Assembly (NCBI GenBank): GCA_965216785.1
Contig: OZ244197.1
Coordinates: 25,120 to 89,119 of the forward strand
Length of the DNA: 64,000 bases
Direction: 5' to 3'
Origin: Thermodesulfobacteriota bacterium
GTDB lineage: Bacteria; Desulfobacterota_D; UBA1144; Nemesobacterales; UBA2774
This document shows, one piece after another, positions 5,000-24,504 of the stretch. Position 1 is the stretch's first letter, and each line of letters begins with the position of its first letter. The position numbers and the translations under genes are program-made. A model generated the notes under the pieces. It did no database searches. It was not told where the DNA came from and saw only the letters and a list, made by a program, of their open reading frames with translations.

Positions 5000-5076
5000 T
5001 TTTTCTCCAGATAGAATGAATTAAAATGAGTTGACCGTACCGGTGGGTCTATGAATATATTTACTAAAGGATAACA

Positions 5077-5508
5077 CTAAAAAGGTATGTCGTCGTCGGT
5101 TTTAAAAGAATCATCGTCAATTTCAAAGTCGCCTTCGGAGCTCGAGCTGTCTCTGGACGGCGATTCCGATCTGCTTCCCGCAGAGCTCAGCATCTCCATA
5201 CTTCTTGCAACGACTTCGGTAGTCCATCTGGTATTCCCTTCTTTATCTTCCCAGGATCTGGTCCGGAGCTGACCCTCGATATAGACCATCCGCCCCTTAG
5301 TCAGGTACTCACCGCATATCTCGGCCAGCCTGCCCCATGCGACTATTCTATGCCATTCGGTGTTTTCCTGTTTTTCCCCGTCCTTGTTCGTATAGCTGTC
5401 GGAAGTAGCGATCGTAAAGTTCGCAACCGCCTGCCCCCCGGTTGTATATCTGATCTCCGGATCCTTGCCCAGATTACCTATTAAAATTACTTTGTTTACG
5501 CCTCTCAT
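5077..5508 (-). CDS. ssb: Single-stranded DNA-binding protein
   Basis: OB-fold start [22 protein letters not shown], a Ser/Asp-rich linker and the acidic C-terminal tail DDDIPF characteristic of SSB. Confidence 0.9.
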
Positions 5509-5576
5509 TGATATTCCCCCGGTCTAATTTGGCTACTGCAGAAATTCTATCATCTGAGCACATTAAAATCCAGAAA

Positions 5577-6170
5577 TCAGAAAATATGTCTTGTAAGCGA
5601 AATAAACTGACGTAGGATTCTTCCCGTCATGCCCCAGATAATATATTGTTCATAAACGTATGCATAGTCTTCCCTGGGTATTCCATCCCTTTCTCTTAGC
5701 CTGAGCTTAAAGTTCTTCTCATCCATAAGGTGCGTTACCGGCACCCATAGGACCTGTTCAACCTCTCGCGCGCAGGGAGTGAATGAAACCTCCTCATTAA
5801 GTACGGATAGATAGGGAGTTACAATATAAGTCCTCGCGCGGGGGTTATTGGGATTTACATCATCGAGTTCGCCGAGAACTCGTCCGCTTTGAACAATATC
5901 GACCCCAATCTCCTCACGTGTTTCACGCACAGCGGTCTCGAGCTTGTCCGTATCCTCACCCTTCATCTTGCCGCCCGGAAACGCAACATGTCCCGAGAAC
6001 GGGTCGCTGTCGCTATCGGGTCTCTTTATAAAGAGCATGGAAGTCCCGGCAGGCTCTTCCTGTAATATCATCATCACGGCAGCGTGAACGAAGTCCCCTT
6101 CAATCGTTAGTTTATGGGGATCTCTTGCTGCCAGGAGTTTTTGTAATTTTTCGCTAGTTCCCTGAGACAT
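5577..6170 (-). CDS. NUDIX hydrolase (CoA pyrophosphatase-like)
   Basis: Nudix box GGKMKGEDTDKLETAVRETREEIGV (GX5EX7REUXEEXGU). Size is typical of NudL-type enzymes. Confidence 0.7.
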   Translation of the reverse strand: MSQGTSEKLQKLLAARDPHKLTIEGDFVHAAVMMILQEEPAGTSMLFIKRPDSDSDPFSGHVAFPGGKMKGEDTDKLETAVRETREEIGVDIVQSGRVLGELDDVNPNNPRARTYIVTPYLSVLNEEVSFTPCAREVEQVLWVPVTHLMDEKNFKLRLRERDGIPREDYAYVYEQYIIWGMTGRILRQFISLTRHIF

Positions 6171-6210
6171 TTTATTTCAGCTGCTATAGCTGGTTTTAAG
6201 CAGAGTATTA

Positions 6211-6741
6211 TTATTTGTTTATCAACTTCTTTTCAAAAGCATCTTTGAAAATCCGATAAGCACTGTCGTCAAAAAGTACAAAGTAGATTTTCTCGAGCGA
6301 TACTCCCTCATTATTAATATACCAAGAAGTTATATCTATCATAATCTCCGCACATTGTTCGAGCTGGAATCCCCCGACTCCTGTCCCTATAGCGGGGAAG
6401 GCAATAGTTTTAACATTGTTCTCCAGAGCCCTGAGAAGTGCGTTTCTTGTCGCGCTCTCAAGCGACTCCCTACTGACCAGAGCTCCCGGGTGCATGGCTG
6501 CAGCATGTATAACGTATTTGGCCGCAAGGTTTCCGGCTCCGGTGACAGCCGCCTCTCCGAGCTCAATAGGTCCGATCTCGTCACATTCAGTCTGAATGGA
6601 CGCTCCTCCGTTTTTTCTAATGGCTCCGGCCACGCCGCTTCCTAAGATAAGCTCGGTATTAGCGGCGTTCACTATAGCTTCGGCGGGGCACTTCGTTATG
6701 TCGCCCTTTAAAACTTCGATTTTATCCACTAAACTGATCAT
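6211..6741 (-). CDS. Macro-domain protein (ADP-ribose/O-acetyl-ADP-ribose processing)
   Basis: Macro-domain motifs GDIT...AIVNAAN...GGVAGAI and IAFPAIGTGVGG. The track ORF begins at 6786, but the macro domain starts at MISLVDKIEV (ATG 6741). The start is uncertain. Confidence 0.7.
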   Translation of the reverse strand: MISLVDKIEVLKGDITKCPAEAIVNAANTELILGSGVAGAIRKNGGASIQTECDEIGPIELGEAAVTGAGNLAAKYVIHAAAMHPGALVSRESLESATRNALLRALENNVKTIAFPAIGTGVGGFQLEQCAEIMIDITSWYINNEGVSLEKIYFVLFDDSAYRIFKDAFEKKLINK

Positions 6742-6848
6742 AATTTTACTCACATGATATCGGGCAAAAAGTAGCAAGTTGCGCACTTGACAAACAGCGC
6801 AGTAAAACTACTAATTTAATCTATAACTCCACAATCTACAACGACACT

Positions 6849-7754
6849 ATGGACACTAGATATTACATTTTAGAGGCTCTTTACAAGCTCTTCCCATTTA
6901 AGCTCACAGGCGATGCGGAGCTTGGTCCAGAAGATTGCTCAGTAACAGCTTCGTGCGTAATCAATTTTTACGGCAGGGCCTATTTACTCAGAAATATTCT
7001 TACATGCCTTAGCCAGCAGAGATTTGCAAAAGAGAGCTTCGAGGTGATTTTAGCCGAGGACAGGGGCGGCACAGAAGAAGGGAAACAGATAGTCCGGGAG
7101 TTTGAGAAAGAACTGAATATAAAATACTTTACTCTCAACGAGAATTTCGGCGTAATGGGCTACGCAAGAAACTTTGCCCTTTCAAAAACCACGGGAAATT
7201 ACGTGCTGTTTTTGGACGATGATACCGTGATTTTAGAGCGCGATTTCCTGAAAGTGCTAGTAAGAGAATTTGAGGAAACCGCAGCAGACGCCGTAATGCC
7301 ATACGGCAGCGCGAGCTTTTCAGTAATTAAAGACAAATACGATTACCATGACCCCTACTTTCCGACCAACAGGTGTATGGCATACAGACGTGAAGCGCTC
7401 AAAGAGCTTTCAGGATTCGTATCTGAAATCATTGGTCAGGAAGACGTGGAATTTACCGTTAGACTAATTGCATCTCAGAAAAAGATCTATCGCTCAAATA
7501 TGCTTTCATACATGCACCCGCCTCTTATTTACAAGGATACGAATAAAGCCGCGGCAGTCGGCTACTCGTTTACCAGACTGAGGAGCAGATATCCCCTTAT
7601 TATCTGGCTATTACTTCTGTTAAACGGGCTTAGATACCTTCCGCTTTATCTTCTTCCCTTCAGCACCAAATACAGAATGCAGGCTAAATTCAGCCTCGGC
7701 TTCGCAAAAGGAATCTGGTATTCGATAACAGGCAGAAAAATCGAGTACAGTTAA
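6849..7754 (+). CDS. Glycosyltransferase family 2
   Basis: GT-A fold features: early acidic AED, DDD (LFLDDDTV) and a membrane-associated C-terminus. First gene of the glycan locus. Confidence 0.7.
   Translation: MDTRYYILEALYKLFPFKLTGDAELGPEDCSVTASCVINFYGRAYLLRNILTCLSQQRFAKESFEVILAEDRGGTEEGKQIVREFEKELNIKYFTLNENFGVMGYARNFALSKTTGNYVLFLDDDTVILERDFLKVLVREFEETAADAVMPYGSASFSVIKDKYDYHDPYFPTNRCMAYRREALKELSGFVSEIIGQEDVEFTVRLIASQKKIYRSNMLSYMHPPLIYKDTNKAAAVGYSFTRLRSRYPLIIWLLLLLNGLRYLPLYLLPFSTKYRMQAKFSLGFAKGIWYSITGRKIEYS
7671..7750. repeat. Direct repeat copy 1 (3' end of the GT2 gene), paired with 12986-13065
   Basis: tacagaatgcag..cagcctcgg.....gcagaaaaatc.agta is shared at ~70% identity with 12986-13065. 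There it is a non-coding remnant that translates YRMQFKLSLG...* against the native YRMQAKFSLGFAKG. Confidence 0.6.
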
Positions 7755-7908
7755 GGTTCTAATATATAGCAAGCTCTGTTAATCTATAATTTAATCTATT
7801 ACATGTCTGAACACATACTAGGTGTTAAACTATTTACATTAATTAAATCGAGAACAGCATTGTATCCAAACTTTACATAATTGGCTTAATAGAGTTAGGT
7901 AAGCACAA

Positions 7909-8715
7909 ATGTTTGATTTAGAAAAAGATAGATCACTAAGAGACCTTATCGAAACACAAAACAATAATGTTATAGACAAATGGGAAGGATATTTCAGTGT
8001 TTATGACGATGAAACAGAATACTTAAGAAACAAACCAATAAATCTATTGGAAATTGGTGTTCAAAATGGCGGCTCATTAGAGGTATGGTGTAAATATTTC
8101 AGCAAAGCTAAGAATGTAATTGGAGTTGATATTGATCCCAACTGCAGTGGTATCTCATTTGATGATAAGAGAATAAAGGTAATTATCGGCGACAGCAATT
8201 CCACATCACTAAAAGATGAATTACAAAATGTATGTCCTTATTTCGACGTAATTATAGATGATGGATCTCACAAATCCTACGATATAATTAAGACGTTCAC
8301 AGATCTTATACCGTTATTGAATTCTAATGGGGTATATATAATCGAAGACCTTCATTGTAGTTACTGGCAAAATTTCCAAGGCGGAGTTGAAAGACCGGAC
8401 TCATCATTAAGCTTTTTTAAAAAAATAGTGGACGTAATTAACATTGAACACTGGCGGAATGGAAAAGATCTTAACTGGTTATTTAGAGATGTGGGTCTTG
8501 TAAATATCAACAGTGAATCCATCGAAGCGTTAAGCAGAATAAAAAGCATCTCATTCTATAATTCAATGTGCATTGTTAAAATGTCAGACGGTAAATATCA
8601 AACAATCGGTAAGAGATATGTAAGGGGAAGCGTCGGGACAATAGAAAAGAACGAATCTGATGGCACAGATATATCAGACGTAGATGAGCAGCAAGACTTA
8701 AACCCGTATAGTTAA
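7909..8715 (+). CDS. Class I SAM-dependent methyltransferase (CmcI/TylF-like O-methyltransferase family)
   Basis: LLEIGVQNGGSLEVW motif I, VIGVDID, and IIDDGSH acidic post-II. Typical of sugar O-methyltransferases in glycan loci. Confidence 0.6.
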   Translation: MFDLEKDRSLRDLIETQNNNVIDKWEGYFSVYDDETEYLRNKPINLLEIGVQNGGSLEVWCKYFSKAKNVIGVDIDPNCSGISFDDKRIKVIIGDSNSTSLKDELQNVCPYFDVIIDDGSHKSYDIIKTFTDLIPLLNSNGVYIIEDLHCSYWQNFQGGVERPDSSLSFFKKIVDVINIEHWRNGKDLNWLFRDVGLVNINSESIEALSRIKSISFYNSMCIVKMSDGKYQTIGKRYVRGSVGTIEKNESDGTDISDVDEQQDLNPYS

Positions 8716-8730
8716 TGTAAAAGCATTATA

Positions 8731-11700
8731 TCACTTTCTGTGATTTATTAAATCTGCATACCTGGAATTAAACAGTCTTAATGCTTTTTGATATAACTCA
8801 AAATCTAAAGAATTCAACTCTGTAATCAAATTCATTAAATTAAGATCCAGATTTTGTACTTTCTCTATGTAGTTCTTCCCTACATTCCGGACTAGGTATG
8901 GAATATCGAGCCCGAAATTAGCATTGAGTAAATGTAGCGATTTCTTATACTGCTCTGTTATACCGATAAAACCTATGTCTTCAGGTATAAGACCATTAAT
9001 AAATTCAAACTGTCTATTTTGAAATTTTTCCGTATGCACAAACTCCAACAAAGTCCCCTTATATCCGTGATGATTTACAAAATGATTATAGTCAGACAAT
9101 ACTCGTTGGACAGGCTCTCTGAAAAATACGATACAACGTTCTGGATTAACTATGCCCCGGTACCTTATAATCGGATAATGACCTATTATAAAAATTTTGC
9201 CCTCTGAGACAAGCCTATTCCTCAGAGATTTCAGGTCATTGCTTTCGTACACAAATTGTCTTATGCAGGGCGATGTCAGGGATTCATCTATTCCATAGTC
9301 ATACGCTATATATTCCTCACCATAAGTTTCTTCTATGCCATTCCTTAAGCTTGTACCCGCGGTTTTTGGAATATGTACGAAAAAGATTGGATCTTTAAAG
9401 CTAATATCGAAAGTGTCTTCTCTTCTAGCGCCGGGTTGAAATGTTTTTAAAGTATTAACGGACGTTGCAGAATTGTCATTTATATATTCAGAAACTGCAG
9501 ATTCCAGCCATGGTTTATATACTTTTGTAGATTGCGCAATCTCAAACGATGAAGAATATAGAGAAAGATTGGGATTATAAAATGGATCATTATCCAATGT
9601 ATATCCCCATTTTGTTCTCATATAAGATATTTCTTTCTTAAATCTGTTTAGTTTCTCTGGCTCAGAATCATATCCTCGAGACTTGCTTTCTAAATGGTAA
9701 AGCTCTGCATGAGGTGTCCATATAATCTTGTAACCGGCCTGCCGAATACGGATACAGAAATCCACATCATTAAATGCCACTGCCAGGTCTTTTTCATTTA
9801 GCCCTCCGATTTCATCAAACACTTCTCGTCTTACTGCCATACAGGCAGCAGTTACACAAGACAAACTATGAGTTAACATGAGCCTACAGAAATACCCAGG
9901 AAACTCTCGATCAGCATAGCGGTGTACATGGCTAGCAACACCTTCGATACCCAGAATAACTCCACCATGCTGTAGTGTATTATCGGAATAGTAGAGTTTG
10001 GCACCGACAGCGCCGACCTCGGCCCGAATTACATGGCTTACCATTTCGTCAAGCCAGCCTGGATTTATGATCTTGGTATCATTATTCAACAAAACACATA
10101 CTTCTCCAGACGAACCGGCAATTCCATTGTTGACAAGTCGTGAAAAATTAAATGGACCTGGATCTTTTACTACCCTAACATTATTGTTTGATTGGACATT
10201 CTCAAGAAACTCGAGAGCATCCTGCTCACTACTCCCGTTATCAACAATAATTATTTCAATTGGCTCATAATCAGTGCGGTTAAAAAGCCCGTCAATACAG
10301 GTCATGAGAAGCCCACTCTGATCTTTTGTAGGAATAATTACTGAAACGTGAGGACACTTTAAAGGTAATTCACGTTTTATGGATTGAAAACTTGAGTGGC
10401 CTTCGGAATTGGCTCTAGCACTCTGATTTGTCCGTTCGAAGTGTTCGTTTACTAACCTCTGTGCGGCATCGCGCGCTAGTTCTGATGAGCTGTTTGAAAA
10501 AGACGCATCAATTTCTCTCCAGTGATAAAGAATAAAAGGAATATGATATATCTCTGATTCCCTTATTATTTCCACTACCCTGAGAGCAAAATCCCAGTCC
10601 TGAGACCCCTCGAATCCTTCGCGGAATCCTCTCACTTTTTGGGCTAGGTCAGCTCTGTAAGCACCGAGATGACTGATCAAATTCTGACCCAGGAAAAGAT
10701 CATAGTCCCAGTCGGGTTTAAAATAAGGGGCAGAGCGCCTCCCTTCTGAATCTATCCGGTCTTCATCAGAATAAATTATTGCCGCATTAGGATTTTCATT
10801 TATTACATCTGTGACCAGATATAGTGCGTGCTCGGATAGTAAATCATCATGATCCAGAAGAACAATCCAGTCTCCGCTTGCCATTTCAAGAGCTGTGTTT
10901 GTACAGGCTGAAATGCCCCCGTTTTCCTGACGAAATGAGGGTCTTATTCGGGAGTCTTTCTCCTCATATTCCCTTAGAATATTGTGTACTTCCATCGAGG
11001 TCGAGGAATCATCAACTATGCAAAGCTCCCAGTTTTCATATAGTTGTCCTAAAACAGAATCGATGGCTTGTCTTAGATACTCGCCTTTCGTATTATATAC
11101 AGGCATAAGTACCGAGAACTTTGGATTGCTATCAAAAGACTTGATATGATTCCGTATCAGAGAGCGGTCTTTATCACTTAAGGTGTCATTTCCCTGTATC
11201 CATTTATAGTAATCGATATTATTTGAAGCATTCTTTTTGTTGAAGTATCTGGAGGTTCGTGGAATCTCATGCGGGAGCCGCTTTCCCCTCAGGTACCAGT
11301 ATAACCTACCGGAGAATGTCTCTATTCCTTCATTTTTAAGCAGCTCTATCCCCAGCCCGGCATCTTCATACAAAAACGCTACCTTGTTTTTGAGTAAAAC
11401 GAACAGGTCAGCAATGCCCCTTAAAGGATGTGTAATCCGCCATGACCAAGTTACAAGTATGTTGGCTATTGTTTCCTGCTGTTCTCGAACCTGTTTTGAT
11501 AATTCTAGATTCTTCCTATCTGATTCACTCAGCTTTGACTTTAGGCTATAAATTTTACTCTTATAGATTTCTTTTTCTTGTTGCAATATCTTGAAGCGTT
11601 CATCTGAGGACAAAAGCACCTCTTGCTCACCACTTAGTTCTTCAAGACGCTTTAGCAAGAGGTTTGTCTTTGCGAATGGATTCGATGTCGAAGAAGAACA

Positions 11701-12801
11701 AGATGGGCGATGCTGCCTACAGATATCCGCTATGTAGTCCCAGTGCTTTTCAAGCTTGCCCTGTGCTGCTTTCGTAAATGAACAAATACGAGGTGTTCCT
11801 GATTGTACCGCCCGCGCAAACTTTGCAATCGCACCTGAGTCCTGCGGCGAGGCATAGTAAACATTGTCTGATGCTTGCAACAGTGTGTATTTGCCACCTT
11901 TGGCTTCGGCAGGCCGGAGCACAGGCAAGCCATATGCTAGCGCCGAAATCGAGAGATGCAGGCTCTGGGCAATGACACCGGCGCTATGCGCTACGAGCCC
12001 GGCAATTTCAATGGGTGATGGCCACTCCGGCAGATGCTTCGCCTTTGGGAGGACTTTTAGAAAAGGCGAGACATCGTCACCGAGAGCGGGTCCGATCGGC
12101 AGCACGAGGACATCGAGATCGGAAGGCACATCAGGATGGTAGAGTAGAGCTTCTATAATTGCTACCATTGATGGGTACGCCTGAACAACGATGTATCTAT
12201 CTCTTAATTTAAGACGAGAGAGAAGGTTCTTCACCCGACTGCGTAAATCCTTTCGGGGAAAGTGGCGCGAGATTGCAAAGACGGTATCAGGAACAACACT
12301 GCACGTGCCGTCGAAACCGGCCCTGCGGAGCGCATCGACACTAGAACGATCTCGTAGAGCAACATAGTCGCTATTTTCGAGTACTAAAGGTAGGAGTTTT
12401 TCAGACCATTCTGGAAATGCATCCGACGCACTTGGCGCATTCCAAATTACCGGCAGACCTGAACCAATACCTGCAAGAGCCGGTGCGAGCCAGTATCCTG
12501 TTGGATGAGGAATCTCCGGGATCGGCGGTGCGTAGCCAGGTGCCACAGCTTTATCAAAGCGGATGAGGTGGCCCCCTCCGATCAGGATACAATCAAGCCT
12601 CTGTTGACCAGGCGGCTCCGTGTTCAAACTGGTGAGACTCTTAACGTCATAACACCATGACGGAGACCTCTTTTCATGATATGAATATCGAACAAGTTCA
12701 AAATCTTCGAGCCGTTCATTAAGCTCCCGCTCCGCGATCATTGGAAACAGCAGATCGCCGTAATTCTCGACATCAAAAGTTCCGAAGATACCAATGCGCA
12801 T
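8731..12801 (-). CDS. Four-domain glycan-modification fusion protein: polysaccharide pyruvyl transferase + coiled coil + GT2 + GT2 + sulfotransferase
   Basis: 1356 aa. N-terminus MRIGIFGTFDVENYGDLLFPMI (PS_pyruv_trans/CsaB-WcaK-like). A heptad-rich linker follows at ~aa 380-470. GT2 number 1 has FSVLMPVYN...CIVDDSS...LLDHDD. GT2 number 2 has VSVIIPTKD...IIVDNGS...LLNNDT. The C-terminus carries FFVHIPKTAGTSL (PAPS 5'-phosphosulfate-binding loop) and FFREPVQRVLSDYNH (3'-phosphate-binding motif) of a sulfotransferase. Confidence 0.75.
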   Translation of the reverse strand: MRIGIFGTFDVENYGDLLFPMIAERELNERLEDFELVRYSYHEKRSPSWCYDVKSLTSLNTEPPGQQRLDCILIGGGHLIRFDKAVAPGYAPPIPEIPHPTGYWLAPALAGIGSGLPVIWNAPSASDAFPEWSEKLLPLVLENSDYVALRDRSSVDALRRAGFDGTCSVVPDTVFAISRHFPRKDLRSRVKNLLSRLKLRDRYIVVQAYPSMVAIIEALLYHPDVPSDLDVLVLPIGPALGDDVSPFLKVLPKAKHLPEWPSPIEIAGLVAHSAGVIAQSLHLSISALAYGLPVLRPAEAKGGKYTLLQASDNVYYASPQDSGAIAKFARAVQSGTPRICSFTKAAQGKLEKHWDYIADICRQHRPSCSSSTSNPFAKTNLLLKRLEELSGEQEVLLSSDERFKILQQEKEIYKSKIYSLKSKLSESDRKNLELSKQVREQQETIANILVTWSWRITHPLRGIADLFVLLKNKVAFLYEDAGLGIELLKNEGIETFSGRLYWYLRGKRLPHEIPRTSRYFNKKNASNNIDYYKWIQGNDTLSDKDRSLIRNHIKSFDSNPKFSVLMPVYNTKGEYLRQAIDSVLGQLYENWELCIVDDSSTSMEVHNILREYEEKDSRIRPSFRQENGGISACTNTALEMASGDWIVLLDHDDLLSEHALYLVTDVINENPNAAIIYSDEDRIDSEGRRSAPYFKPDWDYDLFLGQNLISHLGAYRADLAQKVRGFREGFEGSQDWDFALRVVEIIRESEIYHIPFILYHWREIDASFSNSSSELARDAAQRLVNEHFERTNQSARANSEGHSSFQSIKRELPLKCPHVSVIIPTKDQSGLLMTCIDGLFNRTDYEPIEIIIVDNGSSEQDALEFLENVQSNNNVRVVKDPGPFNFSRLVNNGIAGSSGEVCVLLNNDTKIINPGWLDEMVSHVIRAEVGAVGAKLYYSDNTLQHGGVILGIEGVASHVHRYADREFPGYFCRLMLTHSLSCVTAACMAVRREVFDEIGGLNEKDLAVAFNDVDFCIRIRQAGYKIIWTPHAELYHLESKSRGYDSEPEKLNRFKKEISYMRTKWGYTLDNDPFYNPNLSLYSSSFEIAQSTKVYKPWLESAVSEYINDNSATSVNTLKTFQPGARREDTFDISFKDPIFFVHIPKTAGTSLRNGIEETYGEEYIAYDYGIDESLTSPCIRQFVYESNDLKSLRNRLVSEGKIFIIGHYPIIRYRGIVNPERCIVFFREPVQRVLSDYNHFVNHHGYKGTLLEFVHTEKFQNRQFEFINGLIPEDIGFIGITEQYKKSLHLLNANFGLDIPYLVRNVGKNYIEKVQNLDLNLMNLITELNSLDFELYQKALRLFNSRYADLINHRK

Positions 12802-12985
12802 ATGTGTCTCACAAAGTTACTTCAGAGGAATTTGTAAAAATTTGAGTTTTAAATTCATGCTTCTCTTATTTTTATCCTTTTGCACTAAATTAGTCTGTCT
12901 GTTTTAAAAAAGAAATACAATACTCATTATTTCCTGAACATTACGAACAAAACGGTTCGGAAACTATTTCCCCCTCATAATGAGT

Positions 12986-13065
12986 ACAGAATGCAGTTTA
13001 AACTCAGCCTCGGTGTTGTACCCATAATCTGTTATTAGTGACCTGCAGAAAAATCAAGTATAATG
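12986..13065. repeat. Direct repeat copy 2 (non-coding remnant of the GT2 3' end)
   Basis: See 7671-7750. Together the two copies bracket the ~5.2 kb segment carrying the methyltransferase and the 1356-aa fusion gene. Confidence 0.6.
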
Positions 13066-13102
13066 AATTCGCATTCTCACCCCTAACAGGCACATATTAT
13101 CA

Positions 13103-13876
13103 ATGATTAAAAGAGTAATACCCTATAAAGACCTCTTCATAGTCTACGTATGGAGAGAATATAATATAAGATACCGCCATTCCATCATGGGATTCCTGTG
13201 GGCTATTATTCAGCCCTTGAGCATGATGCTTCTCTTTACATTCGTTTTCACATACATATTGAAGATACAGACATCGGACTACCCGATAGCAATATTCTTT
13301 TACGCGGGACTCTTGCCTTGGACCTTTTTTTCTTCTTCAGTGAATTATTCTGTTTCAAGCCTTTCTGACAACTTTGATATAATTACAAAGATTTATTTCC
13401 CCAGGGAAATACTTCCACTCTCTGGAATATCCGTGGCTTTTGTCGATTACCTCATAGCCTCGCTCATATTTATACCTATGCTTGTAATATATAAAATCCA
13501 AATCACATTAAATGTGCTCTGGATCATCCCTCTTTTCATTCTCCTATTTATATTTACAATATCGATGTCTCTTTTGCTATCGAGCTTAAATGTGTATTAC
13601 AGAGACGTAAAACTTGCAATTGGGTTTTTGATACAACTTTTATTCTTTGCTTCTCCGATTCTTTATTCAATTGATGACCTGAGCATCAAGCTTAAATTGA
13701 TACTATTGCTCAACCCTCTTACATTTATTATTGAAAATATGAGAAGATGCTTGATTGAGGGGCGAGGAGTGGTGTTGTGGCAGTTTTTAATAGCTGCATT
13801 ATTGGTATTAGCATTCTTTTATCTAGCACATAAATTTTTCATAAAAACAGAAAGGGATTTTGCAGATGTCATCTAA
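13103..13876 (+). CDS. wzm: ABC-2 type polysaccharide/O-antigen exporter permease
   Basis: 257 aa with six predicted TM segments and the ABC-2 signature region. Its end overlaps the following ATPase gene by 17 nt. Confidence 0.8.
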   Translation: MIKRVIPYKDLFIVYVWREYNIRYRHSIMGFLWAIIQPLSMMLLFTFVFTYILKIQTSDYPIAIFFYAGLLPWTFFSSSVNYSVSSLSDNFDIITKIYFPREILPLSGISVAFVDYLIASLIFIPMLVIYKIQITLNVLWIIPLFILLFIFTISMSLLLSSLNVYYRDVKLAIGFLIQLLFFASPILYSIDDLSIKLKLILLLNPLTFIIENMRRCLIEGRGVVLWQFLIAALLVLAFFYLAHKFFIKTERDFADVI

Positions 13877-14597
13877 CACAGTCATAGAGTTTCAAGACGT
13901 GTGGAAGAAATACTCCACACAGGACATTTTCCATAAATCCATAAGGGATGAGATCGCCAATATATTTTCCAAGACCGACAGAGAAAACCTCGGGCACGGA
14001 GAGTTTTGGGCTTTAAAGGGGATTAGTATGTCGATAAAAAGGGGTGAGTGCATAGGATTATACGGACCCAATGGTTCTGGAAAATCTACGATTTTAAAAC
14101 TGATAGCATCAGTCACTTTTCCAAACAGAGGAGAGGTTAAAGTGGGAGGCAGAATAGCCCCGTTAATATCTGTAGGTGCTGGCTTTCATCCTGATCTTAC
14201 AGGAAGAGAGAATATTTACACCAATGGAACTATAATTGGAATGACTATCAAAGAAGTAAGAGATAAAATAGAGGATATCGTTCAATTCTCGGATATCGAT
14301 GAGAAGTTTATTGATATGCCAGTTAAGAAATATTCAACCGGTATGAATGCGCGGCTTGGCTTTTCTATTGCAATTCACAGTAGTGCGGAGATAATATTAA
14401 TCGACGAAATACTCGCTGTTGGAGATGAAGCTTTTCAGAAAAAATGTCTAACTAAGATCGAAGAGCTAATTGAGAAAAAAAGAACCATAATTATCGTGTC
14501 TCATAATAAAGACAGGCTCCGAGAATTGACTCACAGAATATTATTTATTCAAACAGGTGAAATAATTGATTCAGAATACCAAGAAAAGGTACTATAA
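13860..14597 (+). CDS. wzt: ABC exporter ATP-binding protein (short Wzt lacking the C-terminal glycan-binding domain)
   Basis: Walker A GPNGSGKST, signature YSTGMNARLGF, Walker B IILIDEILAVGD. At 245 aa it has no carbohydrate-binding extension. Confidence 0.85.
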   Translation: MQMSSNTVIEFQDVWKKYSTQDIFHKSIRDEIANIFSKTDRENLGHGEFWALKGISMSIKRGECIGLYGPNGSGKSTILKLIASVTFPNRGEVKVGGRIAPLISVGAGFHPDLTGRENIYTNGTIIGMTIKEVRDKIEDIVQFSDIDEKFIDMPVKKYSTGMNARLGFSIAIHSSAEIILIDEILAVGDEAFQKKCLTKIEELIEKKRTIIIVSHNKDRLRELTHRILFIQTGEIIDSEYQEKVL

Positions 14598-14626
14598 TTT
14601 ATGTCATCACATTATTCAAAGAGGAT

Positions 14627-16054
14627 ATGATGGGATATAACCCAAAAGTAGCAATCGTAATAGTTACATGGAACAAAAAGAAGTATGTAGTAGATCTACT
14701 GAACTCACTAAAAGACATTAACTATAAAAACTATGAAATATTTGTAGTAGATAATGCGTCTACAGACGATACTTGCAAAGTAATAAAAGAAAAGTATCCA
14801 TATGTGGATTTAATAGAGAATGAGGAAAATCTTGGGGGAACCGGCGGATTTAACACTGGGATGAAGTACGTTCTTGAGAAGGGCGGCTATAAGTATATAT
14901 GGCTCTTGGATAACGATGCAGTGGTAGAGAAAGATACACTAATCGAGCTTGTTAAAGTTATGGAAAACGACAACGGCGTAGGTATTACAGGTTCTATAAT
15001 AATGGAACCTGACAAGGAAATGATAGTTGAGCTCGGAGCATATGTATCATGGTCTATTGGAACATGGAAGCCAAATATGCGGAATAACAGAATAAGCAAA
15101 ATGGAGCATCTCGAGAATGCAGAGGTCGATTATGTAGCTGCGTGCTCGTCTCTAGTACGTACTGAAGTTCTTGAAGAAATCGGAGTAATGGATGAAAGAT
15201 ATTTTATACATTGGGATGATATTGACCTCTCTCTGAGAGCCAAGGCTGCCGGTTATAAGGTAATGGCATCACCAAAGTCTAAAGCTTATCACGGGATCGA
15301 GGACAAACCCATTAACCCTCTAATGTCATATTATGACATTAGAAACGGGCTACTTACAATCACAAAACATCAAGACGGTTTAAGCAGGTTTATATATATA
15401 ATGAACATGCTGAGGGGAACGAGTAAGGGTATCGTATACTCTATGTTAAGCGGACTTCACAATACTTCTAAGCTCCTGATTCGTGGGCCTATAGATTTCA
15501 TAAGGGGCAAATTTTATAAAACTAATATTCAGGTGATCAAAAGTGAATATGATGACCCGAAAGTTAGAAAATATAAAATAGAAGATTTACCGCTCAATAA
15601 TAATTCTAAAGTGATAATTCAACCTAATGCAAGCTACGCAGTCATTAAAAATATGGTACAAGAACTAAGAGAACTATATCCCGACTGCCATATTAGCTTA
15701 CTGATACAGCAAGACAGACAAGAGCTTTTTAAAGGCCTTAAGATTGACCGTTTTATTACTTTTGAAGGATACAGACAATCAACTATACAAACTATTTCGG
15801 TACTCAACAAGATACTACAATCGAATTATGATATTTGCATCAGCCCAAGCCGTTCACTTCTTCCGTTCTCACATGCTGTAAAAAAATACTTCTTGTATGA
15901 TCATCAAAATGACTATTTTGTAAAGAGTAATGAAAATTTATTTGCATCCTGGAAGCTCTTCGTATCATTCTTTGCGGGGGAGTTACTAGCATTTATTCTT
16001 TTACCCTTCGTATATCTTAAGAGCTTTCAATATGAGACAGTAAAGAGCTCTTAA
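14627..16054 (+). CDS. Glycosyltransferase family 2 (rhamnosyltransferase-like) with ~230-aa C-terminal domain of unknown function
   Basis: N-terminal GT-A motifs: VIVTWNKK, FVVDNASTDDT, LLDNDAVV. The C-terminal half has no recognisable motif. Confidence 0.7.
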   Translation: MMGYNPKVAIVIVTWNKKKYVVDLLNSLKDINYKNYEIFVVDNASTDDTCKVIKEKYPYVDLIENEENLGGTGGFNTGMKYVLEKGGYKYIWLLDNDAVVEKDTLIELVKVMENDNGVGITGSIIMEPDKEMIVELGAYVSWSIGTWKPNMRNNRISKMEHLENAEVDYVAACSSLVRTEVLEEIGVMDERYFIHWDDIDLSLRAKAAGYKVMASPKSKAYHGIEDKPINPLMSYYDIRNGLLTITKHQDGLSRFIYIMNMLRGTSKGIVYSMLSGLHNTSKLLIRGPIDFIRGKFYKTNIQVIKSEYDDPKVRKYKIEDLPLNNNSKVIIQPNASYAVIKNMVQELRELYPDCHISLLIQQDRQELFKGLKIDRFITFEGYRQSTIQTISVLNKILQSNYDICISPSRSLLPFSHAVKKYFLYDHQNDYFVKSNENLFASWKLFVSFFAGELLAFILLPFVYLKSFQYETVKSS

Positions 16055-16108
16055 CTTACATCCACAAAATTATTTGAGAGAAACAAATTGATTTAGAGAT
16101 AACAGGCT

Positions 16109-17020
16109 ATGTACTCTAAATTACCAAACTTTTTCATAGTAGGTGCTGCAAAATCAGGCACAACATCAATTTTTGCATATCTGTCTCAACACCCAGAAAT
16201 TTTTTTTAGCCCTCTTAAAGAGCCTAAGTTCTTTTCTGTCTCAGCAAACACATTTCCTCATAAAGGACCTGGTGATAGTGAAGTTGACAATACTATAATT
16301 AAAGATAAGCACGATTACCTTAATCTGTTTAAAGGTGCTAAAGATGAAAAAGTCATTGGGGAAGCTTCAGCTGATTATTTATATTTCTATAAGATTGCAG
16401 CACCTTTGATATACGAATGCAACCCTAATGCAAAGATACTTATAATTCTGAGAAACCCGGCTGAAAGAGCCTTTTCCGCTTATCGACACATGCTGAAAGA
16501 CAAAAGAGAAAGCCTCTCATTTGAAAACGCCATTGAAGCTGAAGAAAGTAGGATGGACAATAATTATGAGTTCATATGGTTTTACAAAGACGTTGGTCAT
16601 TACTATCACCAAGTCCTGGAATATTTAAAGACTTTCAATAAAGGTTCAGTAAAAATTTGCCTTTTCGAGGATTTAACAAAGAATTCAAGCGAAGTTACAA
16701 GGGAAATTTTAAAGTTCCTTGAAGTTGATGAGTGCTTCTCACCGGATATAAGCGAAAAACATAATGTATCGGAGATAAAACTTAACGAGTCGTTAGACCA
16801 ATTCCTAAGCAGGTATAATCATCCTGTTAAAAATTTGCTTCGCCCCTTATTCCTCAACACTTTAGGTAAAGATAATACAGAAAGATTAGTGAATTATTTC
16901 AAAGGTAAGAATGTTCTTAGAATGAGATCAAAAACGAGGAAATCCCTGATTAATTTATACAGGGATGATATTATAAAACTCCAAGATTTAATAAAGCGTG
17001 ATCTATCGTCTTGGCTTTAA
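16109..17020 (+). CDS. Sulfotransferase (PAPS-dependent, carbohydrate sulfotransferase-like)
   Basis: 5'-PSB loop FIVGAAKSGTTS and 3'-PB motif ILRNPAERAFSAY. 303 aa. Confidence 0.8.
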   Translation: MYSKLPNFFIVGAAKSGTTSIFAYLSQHPEIFFSPLKEPKFFSVSANTFPHKGPGDSEVDNTIIKDKHDYLNLFKGAKDEKVIGEASADYLYFYKIAAPLIYECNPNAKILIILRNPAERAFSAYRHMLKDKRESLSFENAIEAEESRMDNNYEFIWFYKDVGHYYHQVLEYLKTFNKGSVKICLFEDLTKNSSEVTREILKFLEVDECFSPDISEKHNVSEIKLNESLDQFLSRYNHPVKNLLRPLFLNTLGKDNTERLVNYFKGKNVLRMRSKTRKSLINLYRDDIIKLQDLIKRDLSSWL

Positions 17021-17090
17021 TTACTAGCATAATAACTTAGTAATGAAGGCTCTGAAATACAATTCCAGTTCTTGACCTCACGTACGAATT

Positions 17091-18401
17091 CTATCTCCCA
17101 AACGCCCCACCTATGAAAAACCCGTCCTTTATGGACTCGGCAATGCCTTGGAACACCCACCTGCCATAGCGGCCTATCTGATAGACTCCTTTTTTCTCAA
17201 GCTCTTTTATGGCATCTTCGCGCCAGCTGGAACCCGGCATAGACCAAGTGTAAGCAACGTCTATCCACGTAGGGTCTACAGTCTCGGCTTTGGTAATAAA
17301 TCCCCAGGATTTAAGCTCTTTTACTACGGAGTCTGAGTATTTTTTGATCTCTTTTGCGCTTGGCTTTTTACCGTTTTGGTAGGCTTTTTCAACATATATG
17401 CTCACTCGGTTATTGGCTTTCCTTGAACTTTTGGGCATAAAAGAAACATCTACATTTGTATAGAACCCAACCCTGTGAAACTTGGAATCGCTATCTGGGA
17501 TGTAGAGCCAGTGATCCTCGGGACATTTTCTGCCTTTAGTAGCGCCGATATTGAGTACCAGAACCGAAGTGTAATTGGATGGCTCCTGATCGATTTTTAC
17601 TCCCGCCATCTCCATAGCTTTATTTAGCGGCAGGGTAGATATAAGGCTTTTATAATGCGATCCCGAGCCGTCTGAAAAAATTACTTCCTTCTTCTTTGTA
17701 TTTATTTCAGCTACTTGTTTGTCATAGTTTACTTTGCAGTCTGCAGCCATTTTCTGGGCCATGGTGTTAAGACCTTGCTTTGGATATAGATACGTAACGT
17801 TGTATCCGACAGCGGGTGGAGCTTTGTCCATTGCCCCCTGCACTGCCACTTTAAGATCCACAGGGGATTTATAGGCGTCCTGAGGGGCAATATCAGTCCA
17901 TAGTCCTGCCGTATAGAGTTCGTGAAACGGGGCGAAGAAAAGCTCCATTAGCGTTTTTCCAAAACTCTTCTCGAGCCAGTCCCCCATTGTCCGGGGGGTA
18001 CCTTCCGGAGCGTTTATAATCTCGCTGATAGCTAGTGACGCTGTCTTTTTCCCTAGGTAGCTCAAATGGTTTTGTATTGGATATGGAACATAAAGGTCTT
18101 GTTTACTAAAATAGACTGCCGATTTTCTCTTGTACGATTTAACCGGAGTAAGTGATTTAATATAACGCAGTATCGCGGGGTCGCCGCCGAAAATCCAGTG
18201 TCCCCCGCCTATCTCGAACCTGTAGGCTTCCTCATCTTCAGGCGCTTTAAAGAGCTTCTTATTGCTCCCTGGTTTTAAATAATACGAAGAGCAGATTCCA
18301 CCCGGCACGTCCTGTGCTTCAAATACCGGCAGACCGGAAACAAGTCCCGCGGCAAGACCCGTAATCCCGCCGCCTAAAATTAGATTGTTAGAGTTTTTCA
18401 C
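17091..18401 (-). CDS. FAD/NAD(P)-binding oxidoreductase (amine-oxidase / UDP-galactopyranose-mutase superfamily)
   Basis: N-terminal dinucleotide-binding motif ILGGGITGLAAG...FEAQDVPGG. 436 aa. Confidence 0.6.
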   Translation of the reverse strand: MKNSNNLILGGGITGLAAGLVSGLPVFEAQDVPGGICSSYYLKPGSNKKLFKAPEDEEAYRFEIGGGHWIFGGDPAILRYIKSLTPVKSYKRKSAVYFSKQDLYVPYPIQNHLSYLGKKTASLAISEIINAPEGTPRTMGDWLEKSFGKTLMELFFAPFHELYTAGLWTDIAPQDAYKSPVDLKVAVQGAMDKAPPAVGYNVTYLYPKQGLNTMAQKMAADCKVNYDKQVAEINTKKKEVIFSDGSGSHYKSLISTLPLNKAMEMAGVKIDQEPSNYTSVLVLNIGATKGRKCPEDHWLYIPDSDSKFHRVGFYTNVDVSFMPKSSRKANNRVSIYVEKAYQNGKKPSAKEIKKYSDSVVKELKSWGFITKAETVDPTWIDVAYTWSMPGSSWREDAIKELEKKGVYQIGRYGRWVFQGIAESIKDGFFIGGAFGR

Positions 18402-18517
18402 TTTAATTTTTTCCGTCCTCCATAAAAGTTAGATCAATATATAACATGTTTAAGCCAAAGATTACAAATTTCGCACGTACACAAAATTTGGCAGAGCGGC
18501 CAGCAGTACTTTCAGAG

Positions 18518-23496: not shown

Positions 23497-23982
23497 TTAT
23501 CTATTTTTCTTAGGCCTGTCCTTCTCTTCTATATACTCACCTATCTTAGTATTTCTTCTGACCGAGGGGGGAAGGTTGGAAAGGTCCGGTTTTGGCATAT
23601 TAGTTGAAAGATCGCTCGTAAAAGCAAAACTAGAGACGACCTTCTCAACTTTCTTAGTGTCGCAAAACGGGCACCTGACTTTATTCTCGTCCTTATCTTC
23701 ATAGATAAGCTCGGAAAAACGATAGTTCTTCCCTAGATTGAAAAACACCAGAGTCGTTCCTTCATTAAGATAAAAATCCAAATCGACAGCGTCTTTATCA
23801 CGCTTACCGTGTTCACCCAAGATTGTTTCTTTCTCCGTATCATAAACTACTACATGATTTATATTGTCATACTTCTTAACCAGCTCGGATACGGTTTTTT
23901 TATTCGCTTTATTAGCAATTGACTTCAAAGAATCATCTACGTTTTTCCTGCATACCGTGCATTCATATTCAAATAGCGGCAT
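23497..23982 (-). CDS. FmdB-like zinc-ribbon protein with ~90-aa insertion (paralog A)
   Basis: MPLFEYECTVC (FmdB-type N-terminal CxxC). The second CPFC pair is ~95 aa later. Lys-rich. Confidence 0.55.
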   Translation of the reverse strand: MPLFEYECTVCRKNVDDSLKSIANKANKKTVSELVKKYDNINHVVVYDTEKETILGEHGKRDKDAVDLDFYLNEGTTLVFFNLGKNYRFSELIYEDKDENKVRCPFCDTKKVEKVVSSFAFTSDLSTNMPKPDLSNLPPSVRRNTKIGEYIEEKDRPKKNR

Positions 23983-24000: not shown

Positions 24001-24504
24001 TTATCTATTGAAATATTGATTCAGATGGTCCTGACCTACCCAATCGTTTCGCTGCTCTTCATCTTTTTGCTGCTTATACTCTAAATGCCATTGGAGCTCG
24101 TCCCCTGGACCGGGCGCCCTTTTACTTTTATCCTCGAATATGGCTTTAAACGTCGAGAACACTCTCTGAAGACCCTTGCCGTCACATATCGGGCACCTGA
24201 GCTTTTTTTCATCCTTCTTGTCGTAAATTAGCTCGCTGAATCTAAAATTCTTGAGCTCAAGATAAAGGACCTTTTTGTTTTCAAGAGTATATTTAAATCT
24301 TCTTAGCGTCCTGCTATCACTTTTTTCGCCCAAGGCGAAAAGGGGCTTTTTCTTCTTCCCTTCTGTTACTTCTATATAAGTGAACCCATCGTTACTTTTC
24401 TTAATCCTGGACGCATTGGTCTTGTTGAGTTTCTCTACAAGGGTGTCAATGTCTCTGTTATACCTCTCTATGCACTCTTCGCATTCATATTCAAATAGCG
24501 GCAT
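24001..24504 (-). CDS. FmdB-like zinc-ribbon protein with insertion (paralog B)
   Basis: MPLFEYECEEC...RFSELIYDKKDEKKLRCPICD. It shares the block RFSELIY[ED]K.DE.K.RCP.CD with paralog A. The two are tandem, 18 nt apart. Confidence 0.55.
   Translation of the reverse strand: MPLFEYECEECIERYNRDIDTLVEKLNKTNASRIKKSNDGFTYIEVTEGKKKKPLFALGEKSDSRTLRRFKYTLENKKVLYLELKNFRFSELIYDKKDEKKLRCPICDGKGLQRVFSTFKAIFEDKSKRAPGPGDELQWHLEYKQQKDEEQRNDWVGQDHLNQYFNR

Follow-up and report, generated by a model that had tools for sequence, protein, structure and literature searches.

A decayed glycosyltransferase gene end upstream of wzm as the probable scar of a gene-cluster replacement in a Dadabacteria glycan island

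Results

Organization of the glycan island

The locus lies in a 64,000-nucleotide stretch of contig OZ244197.1 (hereafter the window) from an uncultured Candidatus Dadabacteria bacterium, and its features are collected in Table 1. On its left, the glycan island is bounded by the resident GT2 gene, a conserved border; this gene has 751 homologues, the majority of which, among those listed, also encode 301 aa, and its synteny with the Macro-NUDIX-SSB-cupin-GlmU-GlmS genes is kept in all relatives. On the right, the FAD-dependent oxidoreductase gene also borders the island in L098 and L096/L097, and it shares a contig with GT2 and wzm in several other lineages. Between these borders, wzm and wzt (PF01061 and PF00005) adjoin a glycosyltransferase gene (PF00535), the arrangement of an ABC-transporter-dependent glycan locus.

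Table 1. Features of the glycan island and its borders (window coordinates).
Feature	Coordinates	Strand	Basis
Resident GT2 glycosyltransferase, 301 aa, W-type	6849..7754	+	Pfam PF00535, E = 8.5e-20
Copy A core	7671..7754	+	Last 28 codons plus stop codon of GT2
Relic of ancestral GT2-wzm spacer and of wzm start	7755..7820	+	blastn colinearity, identity to L008
Methyltransferase, 268 aa, inserted segment	7909..8715	+	PF13578; GC3 0.32
Four-domain gene, 1356 aa: pyruvyl transferase, two GT2 domains, sulfotransferase	8731..12801	-	Pfam
Upstream region of four-domain gene	12802..12933		Conserved with L005
Second GT2 3′-end relic, probably L012/L013-like (D-type)	12934..13067	+	Alignments A4, A5
Copy B core	12985..13067	+	Well-preserved last 83 nt of GT2 relic
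Spacer between relic and wzm, 35 nt, L012/L094 type	13068..13102	+	Spacer comparison
wzm (257 aa; 13103-13876) and wzt (245 aa), ABC exporter	13103..14597	+	PF01061, PF00005
475-aa GT2 and 303-aa sulfotransferase, rest of low-GC island	14627..17020	+	GC3 0.36, 0.32
FAD-dependent oxidoreductase, conserved right border	17091..18401	-	PF01593

Two genes occupy the segment between the resident GT2 gene and wzm. Apart from the window, the methyltransferase was restricted to L002, L004 and L005 among the fetched loci. The four-domain protein matched PF04230, PF00535 (in two stretches) and, weakly, PF03567; in L005 its gene is broken into ORFs of 1121 and 239 aa. Upstream of this gene, positions 12856-12870 were aligned with GT2 nucleotides 661-678 (alignment A4, repeat family D6), a plausible but short match that is not statistically secure; this may be a further small GT2 relic, followed by an AT-rich insertion of ~63 nt.

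GC comparison of the segment with its flanks, which had been proposed as a check in a preliminary description of this DNA, does not mark the insert. The low-GC variable island extends from 7755 to ~17090 rather than from 7755 to 12985, and the four-domain gene is itself compositionally mosaic (GC3 by domain of 0.47, 0.37 and 0.32). GC and GC3 were rejected as markers.

A second, decayed copy of the GT2 3′ end precedes wzm

The two core sequences in Table 1 paired in both MAFFT and Smith-Waterman alignments (84 versus 83 nt, one 1-nt gap, ~73-74% identity). The local alignment score was 38. When the 300-nt intergenic region was shuffled 100 times with dinucleotides preserved and each shuffle was searched against 6.8 kb, the scores had a mean of 14.4, a standard deviation of 1.65 and a maximum of 19, such that the repeat lies 14 standard deviations above the shuffles. 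Copy B sits in the 300-nt gap between the divergent four-domain gene and wzm, and its reading frame is disrupted by a frameshift and stop codons, all overlapping ORFs being 37 aa or shorter. The core contains TATAAT at 13059-13064, in the string AAGTATAATGAA at 13056-13067. The preliminary description had the GT2 end at 7671-7750 recurring at 12986-13065 as a decayed, non-coding copy of ~70% identity, to be checked by pairwise alignment; its coordinates were right within 1-4 nt, and the character of the copy and its identity above background were borne out.

Empty sites in related genomes and the left junction

Inspection of related genomes revealed the uninterrupted arrangement. GT2 is followed by wzm after 32-50 nt in L006/L007, L008-L010, L001, L012, L013, L095 and L098, and the order Macro (minus strand), GT2, short spacer, wzm, wzt, variable transferases and FAD-oxidoreductase is ancestral and is found in all outgroups. 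The insertion of the methyltransferase and four-domain genes is limited to the subclade of the window (L004, L005 and L002). Thus the claim that the segment between the copies was inserted relative to related genomes holds, with empty sites in L006-L010, L001, L012, L013, L095 and L098.

The resident side of the insertion retains more than the GT2 gene. Positions 7755-7802 are a relic of the ancestral GT2-wzm spacer, and 7803 begins the ATG of a wzm relic comprising the first ~6 codons of a wzm of the 282-aa type. Colinearity of the window with L006 and L001 in blastn reaches 7811, and the spacer and wzm start of the window, L004, L005 and L002 are 74-77% identical to those of L008. These comparisons place a putative illegitimate junction at ~7820/7821, past the old spacer and wzm start. 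On the right, the GT2 relic extends beyond 84 nt and has suffered an internal deletion, which would put the junction at 12934 or to the left of it. The repeat therefore does not delimit exactly the acquired DNA, as had been proposed.

The right-hand copy is part of a longer GT2 relic

Copy B is where a more extensive relic is best preserved; this relic covers 12934-13067 in the window, and in L005 its length is 226 nt. The window relic spans GT2 nucleotides ~679-906 minus an internal deletion of ~87 nt between 12955 and 12956, and the L005 relic is colinear with nucleotides 680-906 of the L012 GT2 gene. The relic cannot be translated: the first ~680 nt are gone, a 1-nt frameshift and the 87-nt deletion interrupt it, and the stop codon has become GAA. 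Significant colinear homology, untranslatable truncation and an intact GT2-wzm arrangement in relatives are all found, as expected of a gene relic. Copy B, its spacer and wzm are together colinear with the GT2-wzm junction of related genomes.

We compared the three available B copies (window, L004 and L005) with the two GT2 lineages, using alignment A4 and a re-alignment, as MAFFT alignment A5 placed the relics of the window and L004 wrongly. Upstream of the core, the L005 relic scored 28 against the L012 GT2 gene (shuffles, 11.3 ± 1.5), versus 14-17.5 against W-type GT2 genes, which is within the shuffle range; over this upstream part its distance was 0.39 to L013 and 0.51-0.55 to W-type genes, with a bootstrap fraction of 0.99. 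At diagnostic sites, the window and L004 copies had 10-12 D-type states versus 1 W-type state. The upstream part in L005 had 9 D-type states versus 1 W-type, whereas its core had 4 W-type and 0 D-type. In the 84-nt core alone, which holds just 2-3 strict diagnostic sites, the window copy was 0.22-0.28 from both D- and W-type genes (bootstrap 0.43-0.51). Most of the weight for the D-type assignment comes from the upstream part, which is short and decayed (48-51 nt in the window, 142 nt in L005). Direct Smith-Waterman comparison of the window and L004 upstream relics with GT2 was not significant because of the 87-nt deletion, and their homology rests on the multiple alignment through L005.

The neighboring sequences gave a similar picture. 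The window spacer before wzm matches the L012/L094 spacer, and the window wzm and wzt products are 76% and 74% identical in amino acid sequence to those of L012, whereas identity to the 282/430-aa type carried by the closest backbone relatives is no more than 34-39%. The backbone genes, in contrast, group the window with W-type relatives, whose exporter is of the 282/430-aa type. From these data we conclude that copy B probably did not arise from the resident GT2 end, the upstream part of the relic being closest to the distant L012/L013 GT2 lineage, although a very old relic that kept ancestral states could also account for the D-type sites. It is probable that the exporter and the downstream transferases came in together with the relic. 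The preliminary description had offered either a cassette inserted by recombination at the GT2 3′ end or a duplicated gene end after gene replacement; the second is the closer of the two, except that the duplicated end is probably non-resident.

The island is mosaic in structure. Genomes that are 99.5-100% identical elsewhere differ within it by patches of 200-1400 bp. When metagenomes were scanned with the N-terminal domain from the four-domain protein, the matches were distant relatives and one full-length homologue (L014, 70% amino acid identity), which lies in an unrelated context beside a large PAS sensor gene; the 4.6-kb region upstream of it contained no rRNA. A donor arrangement of methyltransferase, four-domain gene, full GT2 and 257-aa wzm was not found in these searches, the metagenome scan included.

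Conservation of the GT2 tail

The 84-nt block is the most conserved GT2 stretch among lineages and is the part always left attached to wzm, with which it stays through four different rearrangements. In deep lineages, identical codons were used at conserved degenerate amino acid positions with a frequency of 0.75 in the last 28 codons versus 0.50 elsewhere in GT2, an excess with p = 2e-6 for pairs that are not independent; GT2 copies separated from wzm showed a similar synonymous rise (0.58 versus 0.40). A TATAAT sequence overlaps the GT2 stop codon in 10 of the 11 wzm-adjacent copies and in 1 of the 4 separated copies. In a scan for sigma-70 and terminator consensus sequences, neither copy B nor the spacer yielded a site, and promoter-like sites in the region were fewer than expected from shuffles. 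Rfam models scanned over 6500-14000 at a permissive E-value gave no relevant match (a chance mir-374 hit only, E = 0.86), and RNAalifold applied to 12 core copies predicted 4 pairs at -0.79 kcal/mol with no compensatory changes, that is, no conserved structure. The conservation of the tail and its constant attachment to wzm may point to a cis-signal or to an anchor for recombination.

Discussion

We consider it probable that this scar records a gene-cluster replacement with illegitimate joins and that the two copies are the 3′ ends of different GT2 genes. From the comparisons described above we infer the order and mechanism of the joins as follows. In the ancestor of the subclade comprising the window, L004, L005 and L002, the resident GT2-spacer-wzm arrangement (282-aa type) would have been broken after about codon 6 of wzm and joined to a foreign block carrying the methyltransferase gene, the divergent four-domain gene and an L012/L013-like GT2 tail. 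This tail, of ~226 nt or more, would have brought along the spacer and exporter genes that belonged to it. The scheme calls for a minimum of two illegitimate joins, one at ~7820/7821 and the other no further right than 12934. For the outer crossover, a homologous exchange within the conserved right flank is probable, as in homology-facilitated illegitimate recombination or a two-step equivalent. The two junctions could be located and conserved flanks are present; the junction microhomologies have decayed beyond reading. The redundant second GT2 gene would then have decayed to a relic, with a further 87 nt lost in the window, while in L005 everything rightwards from the start of the 84-nt core would later have been swapped for an allele of the 282-aa type.

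An in-situ duplication would also generate two copies. In this case, incoming DNA, circular or linear, carrying the methyltransferase gene, the four-domain gene and a patch of resident sequence (GT2 end, spacer and wzm start) would have integrated by a single, Campbell-type crossover, after which copy B decayed. In its favor, the insert is bracketed by direct repeats, each copy is followed by a spacer and wzm start as in a single-crossover product, and in L005 the cores are 86% identical with both spacers of the W-type. Against this, in each of the three genomes no W-type GT2 comes as close to the upstream part of the relic as L012/L013 does, and the two spacers of the window differ in type, its exporter being of the L012 type. 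In L005, a change of lineage signal where the copy B core begins suggests that this core was replaced later. We regard in-situ duplication as unlikely.

A different insert, with a minus-strand methyltransferase gene, occupies the same place in L011, where a decayed GT2 relic of ~70 nt precedes the spacer (score 19 versus 11.6 ± 1.4 for shuffles). This raises the idea of an ancient landing pad, in which the relic formed once, before the split of L011 from the W-clade, and cassettes between copies A and B were since swapped or lost. Selection would have kept the relic as the carrier of a wzm promoter or leader, and loss would have occurred by recombination between A and B. The raised synonymous conservation of the last 28 codons and the distribution of TATAAT fit such a history. 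However, the L005 relic upstream of the core still has ~61% nucleotide identity to L013, which is too high for neutral DNA older than a split across which backbone proteins are 64-87% identical. Moreover, the B cores of the window and L005 share just 65% identity, each being more similar to functional GT2 genes than to the other, and copy B lacks a sigma-70 consensus. We regard this history, taken as a whole, as quite improbable.

We give almost no credence to a transposon or integrative element with the repeat as target-site duplication or att sites. Although direct repeats flank a discrete 5-kb low-GC segment, this segment encodes just a methyltransferase and a glycan-modifying multidomain enzyme, and the repeat is at least 84 nt long, diverged (74% identity) and derived from a gene. 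Pfam searches found no transposase, integrase or recombinase domain in the segment, no tRNA was present in 5000-19000, and there were no terminal inverted repeats at junctions 7821 and 12933; target-site duplication and attL/attR sites are effectively refuted. Chance similarity in AT-rich sequence, which predicts the other pairs of 20-30 nt at 70-77% identity seen in the region (D2, D3, D5 and D7), is refuted by the repeat score and by the colinearity of copy B with the GT2-spacer-wzm junction of at least nine other genomes.

As the probable product of a gene-cluster replacement, the repeat is an ordinary kind of scar that is unusually legible. For E. coli O antigens, 9 remnant anomalies among 178 serogroups have been compiled in a review (PMC7685785). 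As in those O-antigen and capsule loci of Enterobacteria, a truncated non-coding piece lies at the junction of blocks of different ancestry in a low-GC, highly mosaic polysaccharide locus between conserved genes and is read as the trace of a relatively recent rearrangement (PMC7685785). Here, however, the host belongs to Candidatus Dadabacteria, the flanks are GT2 and FAD-oxidoreductase rather than galF and gnd, no IS or H-repeat is involved, and the relic is the tail of the border gene itself, attached to wzm.

[quoted passage not shown] There too, incoming modules displace residents and leave orphaned 3′ pieces downstream, successive events build mosaics, and one conserved anchor is combined with one illegitimate join (PMC5361080). 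The orphans in those systems include functional immunity genes under selection (PMC5361080), whereas here the orphan is a non-coding gene tail, and how the anchor is oriented and how many events took place are reconstructions. The locus also resembles Wzm/Wzt export loci in having a permease and an ATPase beside glycosyltransferases, methyltransferases and sulfotransferases. The 245-aa Wzt of the window is without the Wzt_C carbohydrate-binding domain, in contrast to the 430-aa Wzt of its closest backbone relatives, which has it.

This locus is a new example of ordinary biology, a gene relic from cluster rearrangement, and it leaves the general understanding of glycan-locus evolution unchanged. 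What it offers is a view of surface-glycan diversification in an uncultured phylum that can be reconstructed at base level, with an island between two conserved genes probably rebuilt by mixed homologous and illegitimate recombination. It also carries a warning for annotation: the 5.2-kb segment alone should not be read as the acquired DNA.

Any function of the core we likewise infer. One tentative possibility, which we hold doubtful, is that the last ~84 nt of GT2 serve a dual use, encoding the C-terminus while providing a cis-signal for wzm-wzt, such as a -10 box over the stop codon, and an anchor for crossovers. If so, every separation of GT2 from wzm must leave a copy of the tail before wzm, and lineages exchanging glycan islands would cross over preferentially at this block. 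A wzm expression signal in the tail would explain its survival through each rearrangement and would provide a handle on Dadabacteria promoters, about which, to our knowledge, nothing is known experimentally. Four events fit a dual use of the tail: the insertion in the clade of the window, the replacement in L005, the insertion in L011 and an inversion in L094.

A decayed second copy of the GT2 3′ end precedes wzm

The final 28 codons and stop codon of the resident GT2 gene (copy A) recur between the start of the divergent four-domain fusion gene and the exporter gene wzm (copy B). Pairwise alignment of the two cores (84 and 83 nt) required one 1-nt gap and gave ~73-74% identity. When the 300-nt intergenic region 12802-13102 was aligned locally with the 6.8 kb upstream, the score of 38 was far above those of 100 dinucleotide-preserving shuffles (14.4 ± 1.65, maximum 19). 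The imperfect direct repeat reported in the preliminary description was thus confirmed, as was its view that copy B is a non-coding, decayed remnant: copy B is frameshifted, its stop codon has become GAA, and all ORFs overlapping the region are ≤37 aa. Chance similarity is ruled out by the shuffle test and by colinearity, and its probability is practically nil. We conclude that the repeat marks a recombination junction, occupied by a gene relic, within a hypervariable Wzm/Wzt glycan island. Features of this kind are known; this one is from a new phylum and could be reconstructed in unusual detail.

Features of the glycan island and of related loci (window positions unless another locus is named)
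Feature	Position	Strand	Description
GT2 gene	6849-7754		301 aa; PF00535
Core of copy A	7671-7754		84 nt
Decayed ancestral spacer	7755-7802		copy of the 50-nt spacer
Low-GC island	7755-17090		
Four-domain gene	8731-12801	minus	1356 aa; pyruvyl transferase, two GT2 domains, weak sulfotransferase match
Four-domain gene, L005	12035-16100		two overlapping ORFs
Four-domain gene, L004	5396-9457		
Secure relic	12934-13067		
Core of copy B	12985-13067		83 nt
Spacer	13068-13102		35 nt, between relic and wzm
wzm	13103-13876		PF01061
wzt	13860-14597		245 aa; PF00005
FAD-oxidoreductase gene	17091-18401		
Window-L004 patch 1	6600-7600		89-97% identity
Window-L004 patch 2	8600-10000		57-79% identity; sulfotransferase domain and part of adjoining GT2 region
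Window-L004 patch 3	12850-13035 (L004 9506-9690)		about 80-88% identity; covers most of the relic
Zinc-ribbon paralogues	23497-23982, 24001-24504	minus	~161-167 aa
Membrane-protein paralogues	26440-27918, 27997-29472	minus	~491 aa

The segment between the copies is an insertion

The nearest relatives of the GT2 protein are from Candidatus Dadabacteria MAGs, and 13 related loci (handles beginning with L) were fetched for comparison. Gene order in the left flank was identical in all 13 (GlmS, GlmU, cupin, SSB, NUDIX, Macro, then GT2), with GT2 on the opposite strand to the genes preceding it. The entire island was visible in locus L098, in the order hydantoinase-FAD-oxidoreductase / HAD hydrolase, GT4, wzt, wzm (257 aa), GT2 / Macro. 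Because the FAD-oxidoreductase borders the island in the window, in L098 and in loci L096/L097, we conclude that the variable glycan island is delimited by GT2 and this gene, which in several further lineages also shares a contig with GT2 and wzm.

The distance from the GT2 stop codon to the wzm start is 32-50 nt in many relatives. Such empty sites were present in L006/L007 (GT2 82% identical to that of the window at the amino acid level), L008-L010 (81%), L012 (68%), L013 (67%), L095 and L098; L001 (82%) has the same spacer, its contig being cut off early. Besides the window, a methyltransferase gene and the four-domain gene lay between GT2 and wzm only in three members of its own subclade, L004, L005 and L002 (GT2 97%, 87% and 87% identical; the L002 contig stops within the four-domain gene). 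Relative to the ancestral GT2-wzm junction the segment is thus an insertion, acquired a single time by the subclade's ancestor.

The insertion is bordered by the old wzm start on its left and a probable foreign GT2 tail on its right

Colinear homology with insert-free relatives extended beyond the GT2 stop codon, through a decayed spacer, to ~7811-7820. The ATG at 7803 and the next ~18 nt are a relic of the start of a wzm gene of the 282-aa type; the spacer/wzm-start sequence is ATGACAGAAACA in L008, ATGACCGAAAAAACA in copy A of L005 and ATGTCTGAACACA in the window. In gapped colinear alignment, the window, L004, L005 and L002 were 74-77% identical to the L008 spacer and wzm start. Foreign DNA therefore begins on the left at ~7820/7821 rather than at 7755. 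The resident locus formerly had a 282-aa-type exporter, which its closest backbone relatives still hold. Locus L002 (UBA2774; 10931) lacks 89 nt that in the window (7807-7895) separate the relic ATG of wzm from the ribosome-binding region upstream of the methyltransferase coding sequence. In L002 the methyltransferase gene nearly abuts the old wzm start, suggesting that it may be expressed from signals that formerly served wzm.

Upstream of wzm in L005, 226 nt are colinear with GT2 nucleotides 680-906, and a multiple alignment showed that the relic is common to the window and L004. The latter two have an internal deletion of ~87 nt (between 12955 and 12956 in the window), which limits the secure relic in the window to the stretch listed in the table. 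Upstream of the 84-nt core, the L005 relic scored 28 against GT2 of L012, a distant lineage shared with L013 (D-type), versus shuffles of 11.3 ± 1.5; against GT2 genes of the resident lineage (W-type) it scored 14-17.5, inside the shuffle range. The relic has the L012/L013 motifs CTGAACAnTAC and CCGAAGCT rather than the resident TACAAGGATAC and CCGCTYTAT, and its frame-corrected translation reads YPFAIW, again of the L012/L013 kind, rather than YPLIIW. At diagnostic sites, those with one fixed base in W-type GT2s and another in L012/L013 GT2s, L012/L013 and W-type states numbered 10 and 1 in the window relic, 12 and 1 in the L004 relic, 9 and 1 in the upstream part of the L005 relic, and 0 and 4 in the L005 core. 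Distances of the L005 upstream part were 0.39 to L013, 0.45 to L012 and 0.51-0.55 to all W-type genes, and its L012/L013 affinity had a bootstrap fraction of 0.99; the shorter upstream parts of the window and L004 followed the same trend more weakly (0.75-0.83). Distances in the core alone failed to separate W-type from L012/L013 origin. By these sequence comparisons, copy B is probably not of the resident GT2 type.

The 35-nt spacer of the window resembles those of L012 and of metagenome contig L094, unlike the 50-nt W-type spacer. With L012, the window shares 76% identity in wzm and 74% in wzt, and with L094 84% in wzm; with the 282/430-aa type found in L005, L006, L008 and L011 it shares only 34-39%. 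The backbone from GlmS to Macro showed uniform closeness to the window in the order L004 > L005/L002 > L001/L006/L008 > L011 > L012/L013. Since an L012-like spacer, wzm and wzt are set in a W-type backbone, we conclude that a W-type genome carries an L012-like block to the right of the four-domain gene, starting within a GT2 gene. Affinity in L005 changes where the core begins: core, spacer, wzm (282 aa) and wzt (427 aa) all belong to the W-type. This is most simply explained by a homologous replacement that came later and crossed over within the conserved core. The glycan-binding domain Wzt_C is absent from the window Wzt and present in the 427-432-aa Wzt of L005 (17375-18658), L006, L008 and L013, so that the exporter exchange also altered the probable mode of chain-length and terminus recognition.

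GC3 was 0.44-0.58 in the backbone and FAD-oxidoreductase genes, 0.49 in GT2, 0.32 in the methyltransferase gene, 0.47, 0.37 and 0.32 by domain in the four-domain gene, and 0.32-0.40 from wzm to the sulfotransferase gene. Low GC3 thus defines an island from the methyltransferase through the sulfotransferase gene, and comparison with the flanks did not single out 7755-12985. The preliminary description was right that the segment was inserted, as the empty sites in relatives bear out. Its proposal that the repeat delimits exactly what was acquired fails at both borders (the left junction lies further in, and the relic of copy B is longer), and neither the resident gene as source of copy B nor GC as a marker of the insert was upheld.

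Replacement of a gene cluster is the likely origin of the scar

We consider it likely that the scar reflects gene-cluster replacement rather than target duplication. The resident GT2-spacer-wzm282 would have been broken some six codons into wzm, and the broken end joined to a block containing the methyltransferase gene, the opposite-strand four-domain gene and, from a second and foreign GT2 gene, a tail to which that gene's spacer and exporter genes remained attached. The methyltransferase and four-domain genes may have come together with the foreign GT2-wzm block or may have been acquired separately. This model requires at least two illegitimate joins, and the outer crossover would probably have been homologous, within the conserved right flank. 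The pattern is like the homology-facilitated illegitimate recombination proposed for ‘orphaned’ 3′ gene ends in T6SS and Rhs loci (PMC5361080), and gene remnants are among the anomalies catalogued for O-antigen clusters of E. coli (PMC7685785). A homologue search for the four-domain gene did not find the donor arrangement. The sole other full-length homologue (L014, 1-8719; 70% amino acid and 74% nucleotide identity) is divergent from a PAS-domain sensor gene of >1386 aa that runs off the contig end. The 4.6 kb visible on the sensor side held no GT2, wzm or methyltransferase gene, and on the other side the contig ends ~80 nt past the homologue.

Duplication in situ by a single crossover would also yield GT2 end, spacer and wzm start on both sides, and at first sight it fits L005, but we regard it as unlikely because it leaves both the L012/L013 affinity of the relic and the differing spacer types of the window unexplained. 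It is improbable that the relic is very old and was retained as a promoter while cassettes were swapped between the copies. Although in L011 the same site is occupied by a different insert and the spacer is preceded by ~70 nt of decayed GT2 relic (score 19; shuffles 11.6 ± 1.4), the L005 relic upstream of the core is too well preserved for such an age, and the window and L005 cores are 65% alike, less than either is to functional GT2 genes. The L011 insert (7147-8263; GT2 73% identical) is a 274-aa methyltransferase gene on the opposite strand, and the spacer following the relic there is a well-kept W-type one. Recombinase, tRNA and terminal inverted repeats are all absent, which excludes insertion of a mobile element; its probability is very low.

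The GT2 tail is conserved and recurs before wzm

The core is the most conserved GT2 stretch between W and D types (77-86% nucleotide identity, versus 58-68% in the preceding 60 nt), and the deletion in the window removed most of the remaining relic. Survival of just 84 nt is therefore partly trivial. In pairs of deep lineages that have GT2 adjoining wzm, identical codons at conserved degenerate amino acids made up 75% in the last 28 codons versus 50% elsewhere (Fisher p = 2e-6, the pairs not being independent); GT2 copies separated from wzm had a synonymous excess too (0.58 versus 0.40). The terminal codons GAG TAT AAT TAA create a TATAAT overlapping the stop codon, at 13059-13064 in copy B of the window; the hexamer is retained in 10 of 11 wzm-adjacent copies, including all three B copies and a 25-nt relic in L094, and in one of four GT2 copies separated from wzm, where synonymous TAC and AAC occur. 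Four rearrangements have left a GT2 tail before wzm: the window-clade insertion, the L005 replacement, the L011 insertion and, in L094, an inversion by which a truncated cupin gene became fused to the final 25 nt of GT2. Gene order in L094 (1-460) is SSB, truncated cupin (both on the wzm strand), GT2 tail, spacer and wzm, which is another breakpoint within the tail. A consensus promoter scan gave no site at copy B, and RNA family and structure searches gave no family match and no conserved structure for the core. The sequence patterns are consistent with the core being either an embedded cis-signal for wzm or a habitual crossover anchor. The one idea that merits testing is a possible dual use of the GT2 tail.

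Short-patch exchange continues within the island

The window and L004 are 99.5-100% identical across most of 12.6 kb and differ in three patches. Their divergence is far above in-place drift, and we conclude that short-patch exchange is ongoing among alleles of this architecture. The third patch is non-coding, ~185 nt long and ~20% divergent, with neighbouring sequence 100% identical over 1.8 kb to the left and 2.9 kb to the right. It must therefore be an import from a third allele that shares this architecture, so cassette-bearing lineages must outnumber those sampled.

The four-domain fusion is unstable: the ORFs in L005 encode 1121 aa and a 239-aa sulfotransferase. The fusion appears to be a recently assembled gene whose C-terminal domain is exchangeable.

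The window also contains two tandem paralogue pairs. The membrane proteins are judged to be PMT_2-type glycosyltransferases from the Pfam labels on syntenic genes of ~486-489 aa in L096 and L098; this kind of protein is encoded by a single gene in L096 and has a different arrangement in L098.
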